DNA from: a virus
Length of the DNA: 64,000 nt
IMG/VR virus record: IMGVR_UViG_3300027751_000015
Span: 1,813 to 65,812 of that record
Reading direction: 5' to 3' (one strand)
Shown here: positions 2,811-31,372 of the stretch, in pieces
Layout of the letters: every line of letters begins with the position of its first letter
Position numbering within the stretch: position 1 is the first letter of the stretch
Made by a program: the position numbers and the translations under genes
The notes under the pieces: generated by a model
Told to the model about the DNA's origin: nothing
What the model saw: the letters and a program-made list of their open reading frames with translations, nothing else
The model's database searches: none

Positions 2811-3248
2811 ATGGCTATAGGAATAACATTTAGCACTTTTGATTTGTTACACGCAGGTCATATCGCTATGCTAAGAGAAGCAAAAAATCAATGTGATTAT
2901 CTAATCTGTGGTTTACAAGTAAATCCTGCCGCGGAAAGATCTGAAAAAAACACACCAGTTCAAACACTAGTAGAAAGATGGATGCAACTACAAGCTGTAA
3001 AATATGTAAATGAAATTATACCCTATGAGACCGAAACAGACATAGAAGATATTTTAAAAATGTTTGATATAGATGTTAGAATTATAGGTCAAGAATATAA
3101 AGACGGAAAATTTACTGGAAGAGCTACTTGCTCTGCCCGAGGAATAGAAATTTATTTTAATAAAAGAGACCATAGATTCTCCACTAGCGATTTACGCGAT
3201 AGAGTGTATGGAGAAGAACTTAAAAAAGACATTGGAGGTCTTACATGA
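2811..3248 (+). CDS. Glycerol-3-phosphate cytidylyltransferase-like (TagD family)
   Basis: FSTFDLLHAGH (HxGH), ER...LQAVKYV and C-terminal R...STS motif. Start could instead be ATG 2790. Confidence 0.85.
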   Translation: MAIGITFSTFDLLHAGHIAMLREAKNQCDYLICGLQVNPAAERSEKNTPVQTLVERWMQLQAVKYVNEIIPYETETDIEDILKMFDIDVRIIGQEYKDGKFTGRATCSARGIEIYFNKRDHRFSTSDLRDRVYGEELKKDIGGLT

Positions 3249-4093
3249 AAATAACTATAGTTGGCTATGGTTTTGTGGGTAGAGCTGTAGAGTATGGATT
3301 TAGAACTCCTAAAGTAAGAATGCAAATTGTTGATCCTAAATACGGTAAAACCTGCTATAACAGTTTAAAGGACGTTAATCTAGAAGAAAATATAACGTTT
3401 GTTTGTGTACCAACTCCTATGAATAAAGACGGTTCTATAGATTCCACCATTCTGGTAGATACAGTTAAAGAGCTAAAAGAACGAATGTCCGGAATAATTG
3501 TTATCAAATCTACGGTAACTCCTGATATAATTAAAAAACTCGTAGTAGGTTCGGGCGGTACTAGAATCGTATATAACCCAGAGTTTTTAACAGAAAAGAA
3601 TGCTATAGATGATTTCATAAATCCTGATAAGCATATCTTTGGCGGAAACGACGGATTTATCGACAACCTAGAATTCTACTATAAAGAATATAGCCTTTGT
3701 AGACCTTGTCCAGTACATCGAATGTCTGCGGTAGACGCTAGTTTTGTAAAATATGGAATTAACTCTTTCTTAGCTATGAAAGTTCTGTTTTTTAATCAGC
3801 TATATGATGTAGTAGAAAATAACGAAGCAGCTTATAATAAGATAGTGAATGCTATAACATCGGATAGTAGAATAGGTAGATCTCATTCTGCAGTTCCTGG
3901 GCTTGATAATAAGCGAGGATACGGAGGAGCTTGCTTTCCAAAGGATACAAGCGCGTTATTTAATTTAGATAAAGGGTTTACATTACTAGGAGAATGTGTT
4001 AGAATTAATAATGAATACAGATCTCAATATGAATTAGACCAAAGGGAAATAGAACAACATGTCGATTATGGACAAACTGAAGAAAAACAGTAA
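3245..4093 (+). CDS. UDP-glucose/GDP-mannose 6-dehydrogenase family protein (short phage form)
   Basis: IVGYGFVG Rossmann motif, FVCVPTP, IKSTV, YNPEFL, K...NSFLA and GYGGACFPKD. Confidence 0.9.
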   Translation: MKITIVGYGFVGRAVEYGFRTPKVRMQIVDPKYGKTCYNSLKDVNLEENITFVCVPTPMNKDGSIDSTILVDTVKELKERMSGIIVIKSTVTPDIIKKLVVGSGGTRIVYNPEFLTEKNAIDDFINPDKHIFGGNDGFIDNLEFYYKEYSLCRPCPVHRMSAVDASFVKYGINSFLAMKVLFFNQLYDVVENNEAAYNKIVNAITSDSRIGRSHSAVPGLDNKRGYGGACFPKDTSALFNLDKGFTLLGECVRINNEYRSQYELDQREIEQHVDYGQTEEKQ

Positions 4094-22423: not shown

Positions 22424-23380
22424 ATGGCACACGAAGTAGAAATGATTAACGGTCAAGCTCAACTAGCATACGTTGGTGATGTACCTTGGCACGGTCTTGG
22501 TGTTGAAGTTCGGAACGATATGACACCTGAGCAGATTATGGTAAAAGCTGGCCTTGATTGGACAGTTGAAAAAGAAGAAGTACAAACAGTATCAGGTGTA
22601 AAAATTCCTGGTAAAAAAGCTTTGGTTCGTTCTTCTGACGGTTCAGTTTTAGATATGGTCGGTGACGACTGGAATCCTGTACAAAATACACAAGCTTTCG
22701 AATTCTTCTCAGATTTCGTAATGGCAGGTGATATGGAAATGAATGTGGCAGGATCTTTAAAGGATGGAAAAAATGTATTCGCTCTCGCAAAAGTCAAAGA
22801 GTCTTTCACTATTCTCGGCGAAGACCAAGTTGACTCCTATCTTTTGTTTAGCAATCCTCACCAATATGGTAAAGCTGTTGATATTCGCTTTACTCCCATT
22901 CGTGTTGTATGCAATAACACGCTCACATTTTCTTTAAATTCAAAGTCTAAAAACTTTGTAAAAGTTGGCCATCGTTCAGTCTTCGATGCTGATATGGTTA
23001 AAGAGCAAATGGGACTTGCTTCTGAAAAGTTTGCACAGTATAAAGAGATGGCAGAATTCTTGTCAACTCGTCGTTATAACGCAGAATCGCTGATTCAATA
23101 CTATAACGAAGTATTCCCACATCGTGAGCAGCGTACTGTTTCAGCGTTCGATGATTTATCACGTACAGCTCAGTTAGCAGCTTCCAACATCGAAACTCAG
23201 CCTGGTGCAGAGTTTGGTCAAGGAACTTGGTGGCAGGCATTTAACTCTGTTACATATATGACTGACCACATTCAAGGTCGTAGTGCAGAGAGTCGTTTGA
23301 ATAACCAATGGTTTGGTTACAATCAAGGACGAAAAATTAATGCTGCTAACAAAGCAGTAGAATTTGCGACAGCAGCATGA
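22424..23380 (+). CDS. DUF932-family phage/plasmid protein
   Basis: MAHEVE..AYVG..PWHGLG, AGLDW, QN.QAFEFF, AGSLK.G, FTPIRVVCNNTL and GTWWQAFN motifs. Confidence 0.88.
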   Translation: MAHEVEMINGQAQLAYVGDVPWHGLGVEVRNDMTPEQIMVKAGLDWTVEKEEVQTVSGVKIPGKKALVRSSDGSVLDMVGDDWNPVQNTQAFEFFSDFVMAGDMEMNVAGSLKDGKNVFALAKVKESFTILGEDQVDSYLLFSNPHQYGKAVDIRFTPIRVVCNNTLTFSLNSKSKNFVKVGHRSVFDADMVKEQMGLASEKFAQYKEMAEFLSTRRYNAESLIQYYNEVFPHREQRTVSAFDDLSRTAQLAASNIETQPGAEFGQGTWWQAFNSVTYMTDHIQGRSAESRLNNQWFGYNQGRKINAANKAVEFATAA

Positions 23381-23559
23381 AAATTATAAATGATAAAAAG
23401 AACCCCTCGTTGTTAGGGGTTCTTGAACCTGCTGATCGCATTGATGAATACGAAAAATGGGTAGATAATCTTAATCAAGATCTAAAAGATTCTGGTTACG
23501 ATCAATATGAGTACAAAGTTGTAAAAAAGAGAGATAAGCTTTACATCAACCGTTTGTAG
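23377..23559 (+). CDS. Hypothetical protein
   Basis: ATGA coupling; followed by a terminator. Confidence 0.55.
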   Translation: MKIINDKKNPSLLGVLEPADRIDEYEKWVDNLNQDLKDSGYDQYEYKVVKKRDKLYINRL

Positions 23560-23568
23560 ACTAAATTT

Positions 23569-23591
23569 AGAGGCTTTTGCCTCTTTTTTTT
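23569..23591 (+). terminator. Rho-independent terminator
   Basis: AGAGGC-TTTT-GCCTCT followed by a T-run. Confidence 0.8.
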
Positions 23592-23593
23592 AT

Positions 23594-23601
23594 TATAAAT
23601 A
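23594..23601 (+). promoter_or_regulatory. T4-type late promoter TATAAATA
   Basis: Exact consensus heading the putative internal-protein operon. Confidence 0.85.
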
Positions 23602-23626
23602 CACTATATACTTTAGAGGTTCTAAC

Positions 23627-24622
23627 ATGCATTCTTTTATAAAATTTTTATCAGAAGGCTTTGGTAATAACGAAGCTGGTGTCTATCATGAAATACTGGT
23701 GGGTAAGCATTTATCGAACGGTAAACATATGCACGATCCAAAGGGACGGCCAGGTGAATCATCTAAGGATGCACATGATAAATTAGAAAAAGCAGCTAAA
23801 GCACATGGCGGTGATGCACTGGTAAAAGATCATCTGGAAAAAGCTAAAGTAGCAGCTGAAGATATAAAAAGGCAGGTTAAAAAAGCAGGCCATACCATAA
23901 AACATGTACATTGGACTTCAAAACCAGGGGACGTAGAGAGAGTAACTGGAGTTAAGTCTTCTCAAAAAGAAGATCCTTCTGATATTATGGTTACAACCCA
24001 TAAAGGTAAACAGATAGGGATATCTTTGAAGGTATCTAAAAAAACATCTAAGGTTCCTGCTTCGAGTTTAGGGCAGACTTCAGGCGGACGTAAGGCCGCA
24101 AGATTAGGAACTGCGCATAAGAAAGCTATTGCAGATAGACATAAAGGTTTAGCAACTACGTCTAATAAACAGAGTAGAAAAGATTGGGCAAAAGAAAATC
24201 CTAAAGCTCATGCTGATATCAAAGCCTCTAATAAAAAGTTTCTAGGAGACGTTGCTAAAAAGCAAGCGAGAGAGCTTAATGCTAGGATTCGTGTTGGCCA
24301 TGTAGACCACGTTATAGATCATATGCGTCAAGTTATGCATGCAAAATCTACTCCGATGCAATCAAAAGGACACGACCATATTAAGCACACGACATGGCGT
24401 TCTTCTAAAGGTGTTCAGACCAAATCAGCAAATCCAGGAAAAGATCATGAACATATATTTGCGGCCATTCGCAAAGAACCTCATAAGCTAAAGATTACTC
24501 ACACTGCAGGAGGTTCAGTTAACTTTCATCATAACGGTAAAAAGGTAGTAACGCAATCGCACAAATTTGATTCGCAATCAGATCCCTTATCCACGTTAAA
24601 AAGTGCTGGACACATAGCTTAA
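23627..24622 (+). CDS. His/Lys-rich protein, PD-(D/E)XK nuclease-like, with capsid-targeting-like N-terminus
   Basis: MHSFIKFLSE start; HE near N-terminus, PSDIMV and GISLK core. Confidence 0.55.
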   Translation: MHSFIKFLSEGFGNNEAGVYHEILVGKHLSNGKHMHDPKGRPGESSKDAHDKLEKAAKAHGGDALVKDHLEKAKVAAEDIKRQVKKAGHTIKHVHWTSKPGDVERVTGVKSSQKEDPSDIMVTTHKGKQIGISLKVSKKTSKVPASSLGQTSGGRKAARLGTAHKKAIADRHKGLATTSNKQSRKDWAKENPKAHADIKASNKKFLGDVAKKQARELNARIRVGHVDHVIDHMRQVMHAKSTPMQSKGHDHIKHTTWRSSKGVQTKSANPGKDHEHIFAAIRKEPHKLKITHTAGGSVNFHHNGKKVVTQSHKFDSQSDPLSTLKSAGHIA

Positions 24623-25323
24623 TGGCACGCAATCAATACTTAGAACTCATAACACTACAAATAGCAGCCGGCCAAGTACTTAAAACTTCTTCAATAGATA
24701 AGTTTGGATACAACAGTGCGCTTGGTAATACTTACGAAACTATTTGGAGTGGCAACAACCGTTACACTTATATAACTACTCCAGGAACAGCTATTGTAAC
24801 AAGTGGAGATTCAGATGATAATGGTGGAACAGTTCTTATCCAAGGATTAGATGCAGAATATAATGAAATTTCAGAAACTCTTACTGTAGGTGGGCCTGCA
24901 GGTTCTGCTGTATTTCACAGAGTGCATAGAGCATCGCTTGCGACAGCAAACACTGGTGATACAAACCAAGGGGCCATCACGGTAACTGTTGATTCAAAGT
25001 CAGTGGCAATCATACCAATTGGTTATGGTCAGACACTGATGTGTTTATACACTATCCCGAGAAGAAAAAGAGGTTATCTATTTCAACTAGATATTGGTTG
25101 TTCAAAGGATCAGGAGCTAGAAGCTAAAATAGTTGAAAGAAATGGTACAACTAATGTTTGGCAAACAAAGGCGTTTATTACAACCCGTGGTGGGTTTTTA
25201 GAAAAGAACTTTAATATTCCTATTGAGATAGATGAGAAACACGACGTCGAAGTTAGAGCAAAGGCAAGTGCCGGATCGGCTGCAGTTAGCGCAGGATTTG
25301 AACTTGTATTGGTGGACAAATGA
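24622..25323 (+). CDS. Late hypothetical protein (beta-rich, possibly structural)
   Basis: KFGYN...ETIW; Gly/Thr-rich; coupled in late operon. Confidence 0.6.
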   Translation: MARNQYLELITLQIAAGQVLKTSSIDKFGYNSALGNTYETIWSGNNRYTYITTPGTAIVTSGDSDDNGGTVLIQGLDAEYNEISETLTVGGPAGSAVFHRVHRASLATANTGDTNQGAITVTVDSKSVAIIPIGYGQTLMCLYTIPRRKRGYLFQLDIGCSKDQELEAKIVERNGTTNVWQTKAFITTRGGFLEKNFNIPIEIDEKHDVEVRAKASAGSAAVSAGFELVLVDK

Positions 25324-26546
25324 GTTTTAAAGAATACATAACTGAACAAAAGAATACGCATATGACCCACATAGAAGACAAAGTCATCTATGGCGGAGTT
25401 AAAGGTACGAGACAAGCAATTATGGCTTTACGTGAATTGAGAGATATGCTAAAAGGAGAACATAATGGATCTGTCAGTGTTAAGTGGGACGGAGCACCTG
25501 CCATCTTTGCTGGCGTTGATCCCCGCGATGGCAATTTCTTTATTGCTAAGAAGGGAATCTTCAATAAGAATCCTAAGGTTTATAAGTCTGATGCTGACGT
25601 GGACGCTGACACTTCTGGTGATCTTGCAGTTAAACTTAAGCTGGCTCTTAAGCACCTTCCGTCTTTAGGAATTAAAGGTGTAATACAAGGTGACTTCTTA
25701 TTTAGTCCAGGAGACGTAAAAACCAAAAAAATTAAAGGGCAAGCATACGTTACATTTCATCCTAATACTATAGTCTATGCTTTACCAGCCGATTCTGCAG
25801 GTGCAAAAGCTGTTAAGTCTTCTAAAATCGGAATTGTGTGGCATACAACTTATACTGGTAGAACTTTTGAAGCAATGAAAGCTTCTTATGGAGTTGATGT
25901 TTCGAAGCTTAATTCATCTAAAACGGTGTGGTCACAAGACGCAATGCTTAGAGATCTAACAAAAGCCACAATGAGTAAGAAAGATACTGAATTGGTAAAT
26001 GAGTACCTTTCTCAGGCTGGATTTATTTTTAACAAAATTGCGGGATCCACTTTACGTCAGCTGGAGTCTAATCAACAGCTAGCACAACTTGTAGAACAAT
26101 TTAATAATACTTATGTTAGAGATGGTAAAGTTATCACTGATACCAATAAGCATGTAGCACTTCTTATTTCTTGGATTAATAAGAGGTATAAAAAAGAGAT
26201 AGATAAGAGGAAGTCAGTTAAAGGTAAAGCAACTCAACAAGATAAATTAGATAGTATTCTATCGTTTTTCTCAGAAAAAAATAGAAATAGTTTAAAATAT
26301 ATGTTCGATTTGCAAAAAGTCTTGGTTTTAGCAAAATTAAAACTTATAAATAACCTTAACAAACTTGGTAATATTGATACCTTCGTAAAAACAAGTAAAG
26401 GTTATAAAGTAACCGGAGCTGAAGGTTATGTAGCAATTGACAAAATAGGCGGTGATGCAGTGAAAATTGTTGATCGTATGGAATTTTCATACAACAACTT
26501 TTCACCAGATATATTAAAAGGATGGGATAAGCCAGCAAGGAACTAA
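25320..26546 (+). CDS. Conserved T4-like protein (DUF6267-like), possible nucleotidyltransferase/ligase fold
   Basis: NTHMTHIED, SVKWDGAPA (KxDG), QGDFLF, EGYV and KIVDRMEFS; MSFKEYITE N-terminus. Confidence 0.7.
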   Translation: MSFKEYITEQKNTHMTHIEDKVIYGGVKGTRQAIMALRELRDMLKGEHNGSVSVKWDGAPAIFAGVDPRDGNFFIAKKGIFNKNPKVYKSDADVDADTSGDLAVKLKLALKHLPSLGIKGVIQGDFLFSPGDVKTKKIKGQAYVTFHPNTIVYALPADSAGAKAVKSSKIGIVWHTTYTGRTFEAMKASYGVDVSKLNSSKTVWSQDAMLRDLTKATMSKKDTELVNEYLSQAGFIFNKIAGSTLRQLESNQQLAQLVEQFNNTYVRDGKVITDTNKHVALLISWINKRYKKEIDKRKSVKGKATQQDKLDSILSFFSEKNRNSLKYMFDLQKVLVLAKLKLINNLNKLGNIDTFVKTSKGYKVTGAEGYVAIDKIGGDAVKIVDRMEFSYNNFSPDILKGWDKPARN

Positions 26547-26547
26547 A

Positions 26548-26997
26548 ATGGCAGTAGGATTTAAAGATTTTCTAACAGTTGATTATACGCAAACTGGCGA
26601 TGGGCAACTAGCACGTAATGCTAAAAAGCGTAAAATGGATACACCAACAGGTAATACAGCTGAAACTGTAGAGCCAGCTGATGAAGCATTGAATATGCAG
26701 CAAAGGCGAAAAAGAGCTATTCAAATGAAGAAGTTTGCAGCACGACTTAAAATAGGTCGTAAAAAAGCTTCTATGAAAATAGCAACAGGCCCGGTTCTTG
26801 CAAGAAGAGCGCGTAAGGCTGCTAGAAATGCTATGGCCAAAAAGATGACTAAAGGTATAGCTAAAGTAGATCTTACCCCCGCAAGAAAGCAAGAGATTGA
26901 AAAAAGGTTGGATAAAATGCAGCCTAGAGTCAATCGTTTAGCCAAACGCTTGCTCCCAAAAATACGTAAAGCAGAAATATCTAAAAAGCGCGGGTGA
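26548..26997 (+). CDS. Basic late hypothetical protein
   Basis: Very K/R-rich; MAVGFKDFL N-terminus. Confidence 0.7.
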   Translation: MAVGFKDFLTVDYTQTGDGQLARNAKKRKMDTPTGNTAETVEPADEALNMQQRRKRAIQMKKFAARLKIGRKKASMKIATGPVLARRARKAARNAMAKKMTKGIAKVDLTPARKQEIEKRLDKMQPRVNRLAKRLLPKIRKAEISKKRG

Positions 26998-27004
26998 CAT
27001 CTAT

Positions 27005-28474
27005 ATGATTAATAAGTTTAGCCAATTTCTTGTTGAAGAAGAAAAGTCTATTTATTTTACGTTTGGTAGAATGAATCCTCCTACTATTGGCCATGGAAAA
27101 TTACTAGATGCTCTTGCCTCGAAAGCAGGACGTAGTCCTTATCGTGTGTATGTATCTCAATCGCAAGATAAGAAAAAAAACCCATTACAATATAAAGATA
27201 AAATAAAACATGCTAGAAAAATGTTTCCTAAGCATGCTAGATCTATTGTATCAAATAAAAAAGTAAAAACTATTATTGATGTTTTGGCAACACTTTATGA
27301 TGAAGGCTACCGTAATGTTTCTGTCGTCGTTGGCGCAGATAGACTTTCAGAATTTGATATACTATTAAATAAGTATAACGGTAAAAAGGGTAGGCATGGT
27401 TTTTATAACTTCAATAAAATTGATATAGTATCGGCCGGACAAAGAGATCCAGACGCTGAAGGGGCAGAAGGCGCTTCTGCTACTAAGCAAAGGCATGCAG
27501 CAAGTGAAGATGATTTTGTTTCATTTGCGCAAGGTCTTCCAAAGGCTATGTCTAATCCAGAAGCTAAAAAGTTATTTAATGATGTACGTAAAGGGATGGG
27601 CTTAAAAGAGGCCAAAGAGTTTAAAAACCATATTCAGTTAGATCCTGTATCAGACATAAGAGAAGCATATCTTAGAGATGATATATTCAAAACTGGCGAA
27701 GAAGTGGTAATGACAAGAAACGGTATTGTTGGAAATATTAAGTATCTTGGCACTAATTATTTAATCATCGAATCGAAGGGTGAGACCTGGAGATGTTGGT
27801 TAAATGACGTATCTAAAGTTAACCCGAACGATATTCCCCCTAAACACGCTACTGCAGATTTTGGCGCGACACCCGAAGATGGTCCGTACAGAAATATGAT
27901 TAGTGAAGAACGTCAGCCAGATTGGGGGACACCCGAGTCTGTAACCAAAGCAAAAGCAATGACTCCAGGCCAAGCCGACGAAGCTTGTTGGGATACTCAT
28001 AAACAAATTGGTACGAAGAAGAAGGGAAACAAGATGGTTCCTAATTGCGTACCAAAAGAGTCTCAAGACCAAGATATAAAAGATCGGCCAGGTTCTCAGC
28101 CTAAAAAATATCATGTAGGTTTGAGTAAAGCTCAAAAAATATCTAGAGACAGGCAGTTTAAAAAACAAGCTAATATGTCTGATAAAGATCCAGGTGCATA
28201 CAAACCTGCAGCAGGTGACGCCACAGCTAAAACAAAAACTTCAAAACACACTCTAAAATTTAGAAAAATGTTTGGTGAATCTTTAGCCACTACAGCAGCT
28301 AAAGATAAGATAAGTAGAGAAAAAGAAGCTGATAAAAAGAAACACGATAGAATGCTAGACCGTGCACGCTTAAAAGATGTAAAGGTAGCTAATATGAAAG
28401 AATATGGCGGGCCTCCGATCTCTAGAGCAGAATACTTAAAGCAAAAGCCAATGAAAGGGCCTAAGAATGGTTAG
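27005..28474 (+). CDS. HxGH nucleotidyltransferase (phage cytidyltransferase-like) with long C-terminal extension
   Basis: FTFGRMNPPTIGH, KNPL, VVGADR and SAGQRDPDAEG..G.SATK; MINKFSQFLVEE N-terminus. Confidence 0.8.
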   Translation: MINKFSQFLVEEEKSIYFTFGRMNPPTIGHGKLLDALASKAGRSPYRVYVSQSQDKKKNPLQYKDKIKHARKMFPKHARSIVSNKKVKTIIDVLATLYDEGYRNVSVVVGADRLSEFDILLNKYNGKKGRHGFYNFNKIDIVSAGQRDPDAEGAEGASATKQRHAASEDDFVSFAQGLPKAMSNPEAKKLFNDVRKGMGLKEAKEFKNHIQLDPVSDIREAYLRDDIFKTGEEVVMTRNGIVGNIKYLGTNYLIIESKGETWRCWLNDVSKVNPNDIPPKHATADFGATPEDGPYRNMISEERQPDWGTPESVTKAKAMTPGQADEACWDTHKQIGTKKKGNKMVPNCVPKESQDQDIKDRPGSQPKKYHVGLSKAQKISRDRQFKKQANMSDKDPGAYKPAAGDATAKTKTSKHTLKFRKMFGESLATTAAKDKISREKEADKKKHDRMLDRARLKDVKVANMKEYGGPPISRAEYLKQKPMKGPKNG

Positions 28475-28721
28475 ATTCGGCGCATACATTGCAGAAGATG
28501 CAACGGCTGGTTTAAAGAAAAAAGCCGAGAAATCAGGAATGCCATTGAGCGTTCTTCGTTCAGTTTATAATAGAGGTGTGGCCGCATGGAAAACCGGTCA
28601 TAGACCTGGTACGACTCCACAGCAATGGGGTTTTGCAAGAGTAAATTCATTTGTTACCAAATCATCTGGTACATGGGGAAAAGCAGACAAAGATCTAGCA
28701 GCGAAAGTAAGAGGCAAGTAA
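28467..28721 (+). CDS. DUF5824-like small protein
   Basis: KAEKSG...L..VYNRG.AAWKTGHRPG.TPQQW..ARVNSF; MVRFGAYIAE N-terminus. Confidence 0.7.
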   Translation: MVRFGAYIAEDATAGLKKKAEKSGMPLSVLRSVYNRGVAAWKTGHRPGTTPQQWGFARVNSFVTKSSGTWGKADKDLAAKVRGK

Positions 28722-30308
28722 ATGACCGTAAAATCAGCAGATAAAAAACCTGAAAAATATGTAGGACCTGATGGAAAACCAAAGATTCGTATGGTTTCTG
28801 TAGATAAAGAAGTTGTGAAGAATGAAGCATACGATGAGCCACAAGGCCAAGCAAAACGTATAGCGTCTCCATTACAAAAGGCTCGCATGGATAAAGAAAA
28901 AGCTGATCGCGATCGGGAGGGTAAACTAAAATCAGAAGGTAAAACTTTTGACCAAATTCGCAATGAAGCTTATTCTATGAAAGAAATGGTATGCGAATCT
29001 TGCGGTGATACATATGGTAAACCTACAAACGAAACCTGCATGTATGATGCTTATGATATGGCCGGAGAAAATTGGTGCAGCAGAAAAGAATATATTGCGG
29101 CTCAAAAGAAAAATGAAGCTAACACATATGTAGGTCAACGTGACAAAATGAAAATCATCGATCGTAAGCCTCACCCCGATGGTGGTCATATTGTGACTCT
29201 GCAAACACAAGCTGGTAAAACTATTAAGCGCCATTTAAAGAATGGTAAAGTCAAAGACATGAACGAAGCAAAACTGATGTCGGATGAAGATGTTGCCAAA
29301 ATGGTTGCTAAAAGATTAGATAATAGGAGAAATGCGGACAGCTATGACCAAATTGCAGTGATTAAAGATATTATGAATAAATCACCAAAGCAAAAAAGTC
29401 TTGCTACCGATAGAGAATTTATTGATGACGTCTTAGACATTCTATTCAAGAAATATAGATTCAGATCAAACCAGAGAAGAGAATCTGTTGAACTTGATGA
29501 AGCAAAGTTTTCGCCTAAACACGTCAAAATGGCAATAGGTATTGCATCCGATAAAAGATATAAGGGCGGCAATATGACTGGCGCTGTAAAAGCAATGGAC
29601 AAAATGAAACCTGGCATTTCGAATCATCCACAAGTTTCTGCTGTTTTGAAAAGACAAAATGAAGATATGAATGAAGAAACTCTCGATGAGTTAACAGCAG
29701 CCGAAAAGAAACTTGTCAATCAAATGTATGACAAAAAAGGTAACCTTACTCCACTAGGTAAAAGGGTTATGGATCATGGCAAAAAAGCAGCAGGCATCAA
29801 AGAAACATTTGGTCGTGCACGGTTTGCTCAACAGCTAAAGAAAAAGGGCGTTGATGTAAGTAAGTTGCATAATCAAAATGTTAAAGATGCTGCAGCGGCA
29901 AAAGAACGCCAAAAAGCAGCACAAACAGACTATGATAACTTTAAGAATAAAAAAGAATCGGTTGATGAAGTATTAGATACACCAAAAGCAATGGATAGTT
30001 ATCATAACAAAGCTAAAGCTCAAAGTGATCGTGCACGTAACTCTGCAACTGCAAAGATTGTAAGAGGAAATAAAGACATCTCAAAAGAAAAAGATGTTAT
30101 TCGCAAGCGCGAAAAAGGTATGGACATGGCTACGAACGTGAGAGCCAAGCAGTTTCGTAAATCAATTGGCAGAGGTTATAGCGGAGAAGCTACTATCCCT
30201 GATGGTCAGACAGCGCTTACTAAAAGAGACCCTATCAAGAAAAGTGATATGGATAAACTATCTGCAATTCGTAAAATGCTAGACAGAGAAAAGGCTATTA
30301 AGAAATAA
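28722..30308 (+). CDS. Modular basic/acidic late protein, probable internal head (poly)protein
   Basis: Repeated NE-A / LDE motifs separating short modules. Confidence 0.6.
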   Translation: MTVKSADKKPEKYVGPDGKPKIRMVSVDKEVVKNEAYDEPQGQAKRIASPLQKARMDKEKADRDREGKLKSEGKTFDQIRNEAYSMKEMVCESCGDTYGKPTNETCMYDAYDMAGENWCSRKEYIAAQKKNEANTYVGQRDKMKIIDRKPHPDGGHIVTLQTQAGKTIKRHLKNGKVKDMNEAKLMSDEDVAKMVAKRLDNRRNADSYDQIAVIKDIMNKSPKQKSLATDREFIDDVLDILFKKYRFRSNQRRESVELDEAKFSPKHVKMAIGIASDKRYKGGNMTGAVKAMDKMKPGISNHPQVSAVLKRQNEDMNEETLDELTAAEKKLVNQMYDKKGNLTPLGKRVMDHGKKAAGIKETFGRARFAQQLKKKGVDVSKLHNQNVKDAAAAKERQKAAQTDYDNFKNKKESVDEVLDTPKAMDSYHNKAKAQSDRARNSATAKIVRGNKDISKEKDVIRKREKGMDMATNVRAKQFRKSIGRGYSGEATIPDGQTALTKRDPIKKSDMDKLSAIRKMLDREKAIKK

Positions 30309-30309
30309 A

Positions 30310-30507
30310 ATGATTAGTAAGAAATGTAAACTGCATCTAGAAGAAGCAAATATGACAAGATGGCAGCACTTTAAGCATGCTTGTCATATTAGTTGGAGAC
30401 TTGAAAAAGCAGCATGGGCTGTATTTTTGCATGCCTTTGTTCCTAGATGGTTTACATCTACTGCTACAGATACTTGCAAAGATATAGTTAAGAGTGCTAA
30501 AAAATGA
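30310..30507 (+). CDS. DUF6356-like small protein
   Basis: HLEE.NMT.WQHFKHA...AVFLHAFVP..F pattern. Confidence 0.65.
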   Translation: MISKKCKLHLEEANMTRWQHFKHACHISWRLEKAAWAVFLHAFVPRWFTSTATDTCKDIVKSAKK

Positions 30508-30737
30508 TAGGTTTTAAGAGGTTCGTATCAGAAAAAAAATCTGAGACTTGGGAAGCCGGCTATAAGCGCCGTGTTATTAAGACTACAGATGCCGACCATA
30601 AAGCTGACGGGTATAATTGGAGAATCAAAGGTAAGGAACGTCCTGAGATTTCTATCAAGTTATATAAGTCTAAGCCTGATCAGGCAGAATTTAATAAGCA
30701 GATGCAAAGAGTAGCGGGGCACGAGTTCGGTGGATAA
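30504..30737 (+). CDS. Small late protein with capsid-targeting-like N-terminus
   Basis: MIGFKRFVSE start. Confidence 0.7.
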   Translation: MIGFKRFVSEKKSETWEAGYKRRVIKTTDADHKADGYNWRIKGKERPEISIKLYKSKPDQAEFNKQMQRVAGHEFGG

Positions 30738-31038
30738 ATTTAAGACATTCTACGAGAAAAAAGATCCTAGACTAGCAAAGGCTGGTGTATCAGGTTTTAA
30801 TAAAGCAAAGGGAACACCTAGCCATCCAACTAAATCTCATATTGTAGTAGCTAAAGATGGTGATAAAGTAAAAACAATTAGGTTTGGCCAACAGGGCGCT
30901 AGTACTGCAGGTGATCCAAAGGCTGGTGAATCGGCAAAAATGAAGGCAAAAAGAAAATCGTTTAAAGCACGTCATGGTAAAAACATTGCTAAAGGTAAAA
31001 TGTCAGCAGCTTATTGGGCTGATAAAGTAAAGTGGTAA
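30730..31038 (+). CDS. Small basic late protein (DUF6321-like)
   Basis: KTIRFGQQG...KSFKARH...SAAYWADKVKW; GTG start after GGAG-like SD. Confidence 0.7.
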   Translation: MDKFKTFYEKKDPRLAKAGVSGFNKAKGTPSHPTKSHIVVAKDGDKVKTIRFGQQGASTAGDPKAGESAKMKAKRKSFKARHGKNIAKGKMSAAYWADKVKW

Positions 31039-31042
31039 ATAG

Positions 31043-31050
31043 TATAAATA
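31043..31050 (+). promoter_or_regulatory. T4-type late promoter TATAAATA
   Basis: Exact consensus. Confidence 0.8.
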
Positions 31051-31078: not shown

Positions 31079-31372
31079 ATGCCTACTACAAAAAATACAG
31101 ACGTCTCAGACGCGCGGCTCGAACGAATAGAGGATAAAATGGATAAGATGGCCGAAGCTTTGGTTAGTCTAGCCAGATTTGAAGAAAAGATGGAAGCGTA
31201 TAATAAGTATCGCGAAGATTCTTGGGATAGAATGAATAAGTTCAGTGAAAAGCTTGATAGAATAGAAGATCAAGTAAAAGATAATGCACACACTGTGCAC
31301 GTAATTAACAAGTTGTTCTGGATAGCTATAGCTGTAGGCGCCAGTGCAATCGCAGCCCAGATATGGATGTAA
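31079..31372 (+). CDS. Coiled-coil protein with C-terminal TM segment
   Basis: RLERIEDKMD heptads; LFWIAIAVGASAIAAQIW. Confidence 0.7.
   Translation: MPTTKNTDVSDARLERIEDKMDKMAEALVSLARFEEKMEAYNKYREDSWDRMNKFSEKLDRIEDQVKDNAHTVHVINKLFWIAIAVGASAIAAQIWM

Follow-up and report, generated by a model that had tools for sequence, protein, structure and literature searches.

The 64,000-nucleotide stretch analysed here (hereafter the window; IMG/VR record IMGVR_UViG_3300027751_000015) covers the greater part of a contig of 69.5 kb from a marine T4-like myovirus, estimated to be 35% complete and with a G+C content of 37%. Among its genes are those for UvsX, the gp41 helicase, gp32, a class II ribonucleotide reductase and an enzyme of the thymidylate-synthase family. 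In DNA sequence it is closest, among cultured phages, to Phage C48C1, Pelagibacter phage HTVC008M and Methylophilales phage Melnitz, which are all recorded as Kyanoviridae. Our subject is a single 7.4-kb operon, downstream of a terminator and of a late promoter box TATAAATA, in which several otherwise unrelated proteins begin with a similar leader of about ten residues. The features of the locus are the following, in window coordinates.

23569-23584, + strand: intrinsic terminator closing the upstream unit, hairpin AGAGGC-TTTT-GCCTCT followed by T8.
23594-23601, + strand: predicted T4-type late promoter box TATAAATA (sequence match), 25 nt 5' of the first ATG of the operon.
23627-24622, + strand: 331-residue basic protein (isoelectric point, pI, 10.1), leader MHSFIKFLSE in codons 1-10, then a body resembling PD-(D/E)xK restriction endonucleases.
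24622-25323, + strand: 233-residue acidic protein (pI 5.4; phrog_8198), leaderless; leader on 0 of 27 homologues.
25320-26546, + strand: 408-residue DUF6267 protein (PF19782, 3e-101), leader MSFKEYITE, then an RNA-ligase-like covalent nucleotidyltransferase body whose KxDG is K55-D57-G58.
26548-26997, + strand: 149-residue very basic protein (pI 11.4; 28% Lys plus Arg), variant leader MAVGFKDFLTVD.
27005-28474, + strand: 489-residue cytidylyltransferase/NMNAT-like protein, leader MINKFSQFLVE, HxGH core (TIGHGK), Cys-rich segment, basic tail.
28467-28721, + strand: 84-residue DUF5824 protein (PF19141, 1.8e-18) with its own leader MVRFGAYIAE; 8-nt overlap with the end of the preceding gene.
28722-30308, + strand: 528-residue basic, Lys/Glu-rich protein, leaderless; leader on 0 of 28 homologues.
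30310-30507, + strand: 65-residue DUF6356 protein (PF19883, 1.5e-11), leaderless.
30504-30737, + strand: 77-residue basic protein, leader MIGFKRFVSE; leader on 5 of 6 homologues.
30730-31038, + strand: 102-residue basic protein, GTG start, leader MDKFKTFYE; phrog_7595, profile starting at residue 9.
31043-31050, + strand: next TATAAATA box, directly past the last leader gene, opening the following unit, whose genes are leaderless.

An earlier note on this DNA had announced six such leaders, and a seventh partial one, in a late operon placed behind one promoter. The six N-termini are all present in the sequence, as is the partial match at 26548 (MAVGFKDFL, which reads MAVGFKDFLTVD), and the TATAAATA box at 23594 does precede the operon. 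The picture of a single-promoter series of leader genes has nevertheless to be corrected: three genes of the operon carry no leader (24622-25323, 28722-30308 and 30310-30507), and a further TATAAATA is found inside the DUF6267 gene (26345-26352), about 200 nt 5' of the start of the 149-residue protein. Judged from its sequence, this box may serve as a late promoter within the operon or may be there by chance.

The occurrence of the leader was counted on a simple call of the longest open reading frames (ORFs) of the whole contig, i.e. 117 genes, plus 199 spurious ORFs. The strict pattern M-x(1-3)-[FY]-x-x-[FY]-x(1-2)-E is found in exactly 6 of the 117 genes, every one in the late operon, and in none of the 199 spurious ORFs. 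Random N-termini of the same proteome composition would give 0.34 matches per 117 genes. For six matches to land by chance in any one run of ten neighbouring genes, the probability is about 7e-6; the core motif occurs only 12 other times in 21,695 residues. Synonymous codons vary from one leader to another (TTT/TTC, GAA/GAG, TTA/ATA/CTT/ATT/GTA), which indicates that the conservation lies at the protein level. All the leader proteins are basic (pI 9.7-11.4), as are the T4 internal proteins.

The genes of these T4 internal proteins (IPs), read directly, have an N-terminus of the same type: IPII and IPIII begin with MKTYQEFIAE, and IPI with MKTFKEFTSTTTPVSTITE (MKTFKEF...). The first ten residues of IPIII suffice for its packaging (PMC9026906, a review of Black's work). 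In this capsid-targeting sequence (CTS), the targeting information is carried by residues 4 and 7 and the processing information by residues 8 and 10; an Asp at position 10 blocks the cleavage and keeps the targeting, and the gp21 protease cleaves after L/I-x-E (PMC9026906). The leaders of the window follow this scheme, in the T4 register or one residue off: F/Y at 4 and 7, I/L/V at 8, E at 10. F/Y stand at 4 and 7 in three leaders, and have the same spacing offset by one residue in two more. Five leaders finish with an end of the cleavage type (L-S-E, I-T-E, L-V-E, I-A-E and V-S-E), the sixth with F-Y-E. The leader at 26548 has the targeting half only (F..FL), its Asp/Glu being one residue later than the canonical position. 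This variant, [GS]FKD[FM][LMI]xV[DE]Y, recurs across the 68 homologues of the 149-residue protein and, from its sequence, may target without cleavage at that site.

Among 258 unique related leaders, the first aromatic residue is F in 95%, the residue at +3 is F/Y in 92%, and in 80% the first aromatic comes three residues after Met; the residue at +4, a position that the search pattern did not impose, is L/I in 86%. Some leaders of relatives read MKTFKEFLSE or MKTFKWFITE. The leader agrees with the T4 CTS at each of the positions mapped by mutation (4, 7, 8 and 10). Like the propeptides of IPI, IPII and IPIII, and the short one of Alt, it is an N-terminal extension of about ten residues borne by otherwise unrelated, basic, late proteins, and like in the IP loci of T-even phages (PMC3012670) a changing set of cargos stands behind a constant leader. 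On the other hand, the carrier is a marine Kyanoviridae-like myovirus, distant from the T-evens; a residue other than Ala follows the Glu; the cargo genes stand together in a single operon, unlike the scattered IP loci of T4; and the cargo has three enzyme-like proteins of 36-55 kDa (RNA-ligase-, NMNAT- and restriction-endonuclease-like), unlike the small IPs of the inhibitor type.

The syntenic operons of C48C1 and Melnitz have the same leaders, that of HTVC008M has them in a weaker form, and they are also found on the cytidylyltransferases of the cyanophages S-SSM4, P-SSM2, S-SM1 and S-SZBM1. Our comparison set consists of 80 related metagenomic loci of IMG/VR, retrieved with the DUF6267 protein—a family which has 2,559 matches among the 50%-identity cluster representatives of the library searched. 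In these loci the strict pattern is found on 50 of 79 DUF6267 proteins, and the leader on 53 of 66 cytidylyltransferases and 35 of 48 stand-alone DUF5824 proteins; going by the list of the misses rather than by a count, most of them read as start-codon miscalls or as an F..H variant. The homologues of the leaderless genes never have it (0/27, 0/28 and 0/42), nor do the 191 genes of the opposite strand. Every leader gene shares the strand of the DUF6267 gene and falls within the interval -4 to +6 kb relative to it. The four convincing leaders of a complete 157-kb relative all belong to this operon, a loosened pattern giving two doubtful matches elsewhere.

The leader is a transferable module, independent of the fold of its cargo. 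At least ten further unrelated cargo families bear it in the related loci, which brings the unrelated families to at least 16 in all; among ten representatives of these further cargos, one has a Pfam match (DUF6321) and eight gave none. The Pfam or PHROG profiles of DUF6267, of the cytidylyltransferase, of DUF5824 and of phrog_7595 all begin past residue 8-19. In two AlphaFold models of mean predicted local distance difference test (pLDDT) 94 the leader is disordered, its first 6-9 residues having a pLDDT below 50, and in the 331-residue family the linker following the leader varies in length. The 102-residue protein has homologues in the podoviruses P12053L and CRP-1 and in Vibrio phage D274, whose body aligns and whose leader is absent; its homologue in the complete T4-like relative G002 begins with the leader MIKFKEFLEE.

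DUF5824 occurs in two arrangements. In HTVC008M it makes up the C-terminal part of the cytidylyltransferase, as a domain without leader (residues 520-595, 82% identity), and in Melnitz it lies inside this enzyme, no internal leader being found at the DUF5824 junction of these two fused enzymes; as a separate gene, in the window and in C48C1, it has a leader of its own. One leader per polypeptide is what would be predicted for a targeting tag. The comparison (window 28467-28721 versus L002:5777-7567 and L003:4825-6777) looks like a gene fission or fusion accompanied by the gain or loss of the targeting leader. For DUF6267, we also considered that leaderless forms might be confined to phages that are not T4-like; this was rejected, as the T4-like cyanophages S-SM1, S-SZBM1 and P-HM2 carry a leaderless DUF6267.

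A protease able to process such leaders would be of the gp21 type. A Peptidase_S77 (gp21-type) gene is found in four of four long relatives that have the operon (1e-40 to 1e-42), flanked by portal, gp22-like and gp23-like genes. A modelled complex between the gp21 protease of a relative and residues 1-40 of its cytidylyltransferase scored 0.00; it was run without controls and is evidence neither way. In the complete relative G002, MKLISEYVE opens the gp21 homologue, and VLNE is found close to the N-terminus of the gp23 homologue (L087:1432-2088 and 3156-3428); these sites are of the L/I-x-E type, as noted for the propeptides of T4 gp21 and gp23.

Leader-bearing homologues have been detected in virions. 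In CsCl-purified particles of S-SM1, the cytidylyltransferase T4-GC190, whose N-terminus is MKKFSAFLNE, gave 25 peptide counts, as many as gp6 or gp9 (Sullivan et al. 2010, PMC3037559), and Table S8 of the same work lists its neighbours GC1453, GC1454, GC1455, GC425 and GC426 as likewise detected. The adjacent DUF6267-like GC71 is leaderless, and is absent from the portions of that table examined. In S-SZBM1, ORF140 is among 30 virion proteins detected and the DUF6267 protein ORF141 is not mentioned (PMC9146016); the former has the leader MRFRQFIIE, the latter is leaderless. Cytidylyltransferase/NMNAT-like proteins are further reported, without a mechanism, from the virions of S-CREM2, S-SCSM1 and S-CBWM1 (PMC10665884, PMC9602691). 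The leader itself was read on the enzymes of S-SM1, S-SSM4, P-SSM2 and S-SZBM1. The publications consulted leave the virion location of this enzyme unexplained, and a targeting leader is mentioned in none of them. The enzyme of the window (27005-28474) is homologous to these virion proteins, with 34-42% identity to S-SZBM1 ORF140 and to the S-SSM4 enzyme, and its locus is a comparable uvsX/gp41-to-gp61 region; it differs by its greater length (Cys-rich segment, basic tail) and by DUF5824, split off as a leader-bearing gene. We found no publication tying a capsid-targeting sequence to cyanophage or pelagiphage proteins, within a coverage of the literature that is incomplete, so that an earlier description is possible.

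In S-SM1, the block syntenic with the operon (L107:2447-9354) has six of ten consecutive genes whose products are virion-detected, SSM1_188, 190, 191, 192, 195 and 197, according to Table S8 (PMC3037559). Among these proteins only SSM1_190 has a canonical leader, the one of SSM1_192 being degenerate (MLSFKELQE). There seems to be another way into the particle, one that does not depend on the leader. The leaderless 528-residue protein of the window has no detectable similarity to the virion proteins SSM1_191 and SZBM1_139.

As for the cargo, the labels proposed earlier for three proteins of the operon—nuclease-like, KxDG ligase-like and HxGH nucleotidyltransferase—hold reasonably well: the first models as a PD-(D/E)xK fold like MspI and HinP1I, the second as an RNA-ligase-like nucleotidyltransferase, and the third passes the Pfam threshold for cytidylyltransferase-like proteins. 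In the family of the 331-residue protein (104 homologues, 36-96% body identity), F4 and E10 of the leader are at least 90% conserved, and E22, D119, S133 and K135 are invariant. A sequence search against solved structures gave noise only. The AlphaFold 2 model of the protein has a pLDDT of 94.8, with the leader disordered. The folds that it matches best, over about 200 residues, are those of MspI (Z 6.7) and of HinP1I (Z 6.5), with Foldseek probabilities of 1.0 and 0.9 and, for HinP1I, an E of 1.6e-3. The top matches of the model are all PD-(D/E)xK enzymes: MspI, HinP1I, Dna2, RecE, Cas4-like and Hjc, with Z between 4.7 and 6.7. D119 opens the strand 120-124 and S133-x-K135 lies within the strand 129-136, the middle acidic residue being a Ser; MspI and HinP1I also have a non-acidic residue in the x-K motif. 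The invariant E22, S118-D119 and S133-x-K135 are located at the places expected for catalytic residues in this fold. The likeness is limited by a Z below 8, an identity of 10-12% and additional helical regions; unlike MspI and HinP1I, the phage protein has no evident methyltransferase partner, and its predicted place is inside a virion, not in the defence of a cell.

In the DUF6267 protein, the match to PF19782 begins at residue 12 and the AlphaFold 2 model has a pLDDT of 94.4, with residues 1-9 below 50. Over 111 sequences (34-62% identity), conservation reaches at least 90% at K55, D57 and G58 and is complete at E368, G369 and K382. With an exhaustive aligner, RNA ligases are the only long matches of the model, at Z 6.6-8.3 over 155-204 residues, which is near the background ceiling. 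Foldseek against the PDB returned nothing significant, DNA ligases appearing at E of about 0.2-0.6, and the sequence has no match among solved structures. As the structural scores are near background, the assignment of an RNA-ligase-like nucleotidyltransferase fold is of moderate strength, the evidence from motifs being stronger. DUF6267 has the motif I KxDG (with the Lys that is adenylylated in this superfamily), the EG of motif IV and, as K382, the Lys of motif V of ATP-dependent RNA ligases such as T4 Rnl2, T. brucei REL1, the Naegleria nick-sealing ligase and the fungal Trl1 domain, with which its model aligns at Z 7.6-8.3 over 163-204 residues; unlike them, it has a helical insertion of about 130 residues between the N- and C-terminal motifs. 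In some metagenomic proteins (P0246, P0333, P0362; phrog_455, a profile of 764 positions), DUF6267 and the HxGH nucleotidyltransferase are fused in either order, which argues that the two enzymes work together. The DUF6267-like gene of S-SSM4 (CYXG_00144, L005:4836-5759) is annotated too far downstream, from a TTG within a conserved N.HLEH.ED box.

The 489-residue protein matches PF01467 with 24.6 bits (cut-off 21) over residues 19-117, and phrog_395 from residue 12 (6e-74); TIGHGK, at residues 27-32, is an (H/T)xGH motif. Its sequence has no match among solved structures. In C48C1, the cytidylyltransferase (OQ984149 CDS0089, L001:7593-9023) is annotated from MNPPTIGHGK, too far downstream; the frame stays open upstream of this point, where a GTG start gives the complete leader (V)IKNFSQYLLEEE. 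Concerning the other proteins of the operon, the 528-residue one has no family in profile searches of Pfam, PHROG and NCBIfam, and the NCBIfam search added no family.

We consider it quite probable that the ten-residue N-termini are capsid-targeting propeptides of the T4 type, and that the operon encodes packaged internal proteins with a new, partly enzymatic cargo. This reading, advanced in the earlier note, gains support from the register match with T4, from a conservation restricted to the operon and from the leader-bearing homologues present in cyanophage virions. Late in infection, the operon would be transcribed from the TATAAATA promoter, and each separate polypeptide bearing M-x-x-[FY]-x-x-[FY]-[LIV]-x-E would be recruited by its two aromatic residues to the scaffolding core of the prohead. 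The gp21-type serine protease of the phage would then cut after Glu (the L/I-x-E site), the mature basic proteins remaining in the head with the DNA and leaving with it at the next infection. The cargo would comprise the PD-(D/E)xK nuclease-like, the RNA-ligase-like DUF6267, the NMNAT/cytidylyltransferase-like and the DUF5824 proteins and two small basic proteins, the 149-residue variant being a seventh. The leader proteins probably travel in the virion and enter the new host together with the DNA, the enzymes then presumably acting there; a role in counter-defence is plausible. The kind is best read as already known, that of the T4-type CTS internal proteins, the novelty being an enzymatic cargo in an abundant clade of marine phages.

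Several observations weigh against this interpretation. The last leader ends with F-Y-E, not with L/I-x-E, and cargos of 36-55 kDa exceed the T4 IPs in size, though they stay below T4 Alt. No Peptidase_S77 match was found on the contig of the window, which is about 35% complete and devoid of a head module; for this latter reason the protease of the phage itself is not seen. The HTVC008M cytidylyltransferase has a degenerate leader (MKTLKELLRK), and in P-HM2 the versions of both enzymes, DUF6267 and cytidylyltransferase, are leaderless, so that packaging would be lineage-specific. Besides, leaderless neighbours, GC1453 and GC1454 in S-SM1 and ORF139 in S-SZBM1, are also detected in virions, thus the leader is not the sole way in. 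Finally, the absence of a protein, such as the leaderless DUF6267 homologues above, from a mass-spectrometry list of 30-40 proteins is weak negative evidence.

An alternative accepts that the leader directs the proteins into the prohead, but sees in them assembly, core or DNA-condensing components, degraded or retained and not delivered as active enzymes. The T4 core proteins gp22, gp67 and gp68 are indeed also targeted to the prohead and mostly degraded, and IPIII influences the morphogenesis of the head (PMC9026906); several of the cargo proteins are small, very basic and without an enzyme family. We nevertheless judge this unlikely: in three cargo proteins the fold is enzyme-like and the catalytic residues are conserved, mature CsCl-purified virions contain the cytidylyltransferase with counts like those of structural proteins present in 12-18 copies (PMC3037559), and the IPs and Alt of T4, which have the same kind of leader, are ejected (PMC9026906).

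The shared N-terminus might otherwise be a signal unrelated to head packaging—docking to a chaperone or partner, address to the membrane or periplasm, degron. So short a leader could form an amphipathic helix (H2-8 in the 331-residue model), but it is too little hydrophobic for a signal peptide, it agrees with the CTS at four functionally mapped positions, its bearers are present in virions, and it is found only in T4-type phages carrying a gp21 protease, the podovirus homologues being without it; we regard this explanation as distinctly improbable. That the similarity would be a roleless by-product, either of an AT-rich codon preference aiding translation initiation (F, K, I, N and Y have AT-rich codons, in a genome of 37% GC) or of a recombination boundary for cassette shuffling (the T4 IP loci are known regions of cassette exchange, PMC3012670), is hardly credible, since it concerns 6 of 117 genes and no other late or early gene, residues are fixed while synonymous sites vary, F4 and E10 remain at least 90% conserved at 36% body identity, and the L/I at +4 and the Glu at +6 are not explained by an AT bias.

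If the leader is a capsid-targeting propeptide, as we favour, its interest goes beyond this locus. The T4 CTS is the classic route for loading proteins into the head and delivering them with the DNA, and is an engineering tool too; if the leader works alike across this very large clade of marine T4-like phages, the system formed by the CTS, the core and the protease would be ancient and portable. This would explain the published puzzle of a cytidylyltransferase/NMNAT-like enzyme recurring in purified cyanophage virions. A rule of ten residues could moreover predict, from sequence alone, the injected proteins of uncultured ocean phages; the predicted set includes ligase-, nucleotidyltransferase- and nuclease-like proteins, which could plausibly serve in host takeover or in counter-defence. 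For experiments, lineages that differ naturally by having gained or lost the leader supply controls that are already at hand.

More tentatively, and with more doubt than confidence, the operon as a whole might be a pre-made enzymatic first-strike kit, injected before the expression of phage genes. The nuclease would attack the unmodified DNA of the host; the presence of a thymidylate-synthase-family gene suggests that the phage DNA may be hydroxymethylated, which would fit an injected nuclease sparing it. The RNA-ligase-like and NMNAT-like enzymes would repair cleaved tRNA or restore NAD+, so defeating abortive infection by anticodon nucleases or by NAD+ depletion. Were this true, the leader would be a sequence rule for the injected proteome of abundant T4-like phages of the ocean, and lineages would switch proteins between a cytoplasmic and an injected state by gaining or losing ten codons.

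The surroundings of the operon call for two further remarks. Upstream of the terminator and promoter lie a DUF932 protein (22424-23380; PF06067, 5e-41; phrog_1221) and a 60-residue ORF (23377-23559), both always leaderless; with 42 and 14 homologues respectively, they keep their place beside it in many of the related contigs. Downstream, the first gene past the second late promoter (31079-31372) encodes a protein of 97 residues with a C-terminal hydrophobic segment and a weak similarity to a holin family (phrog_689, 1e-3).

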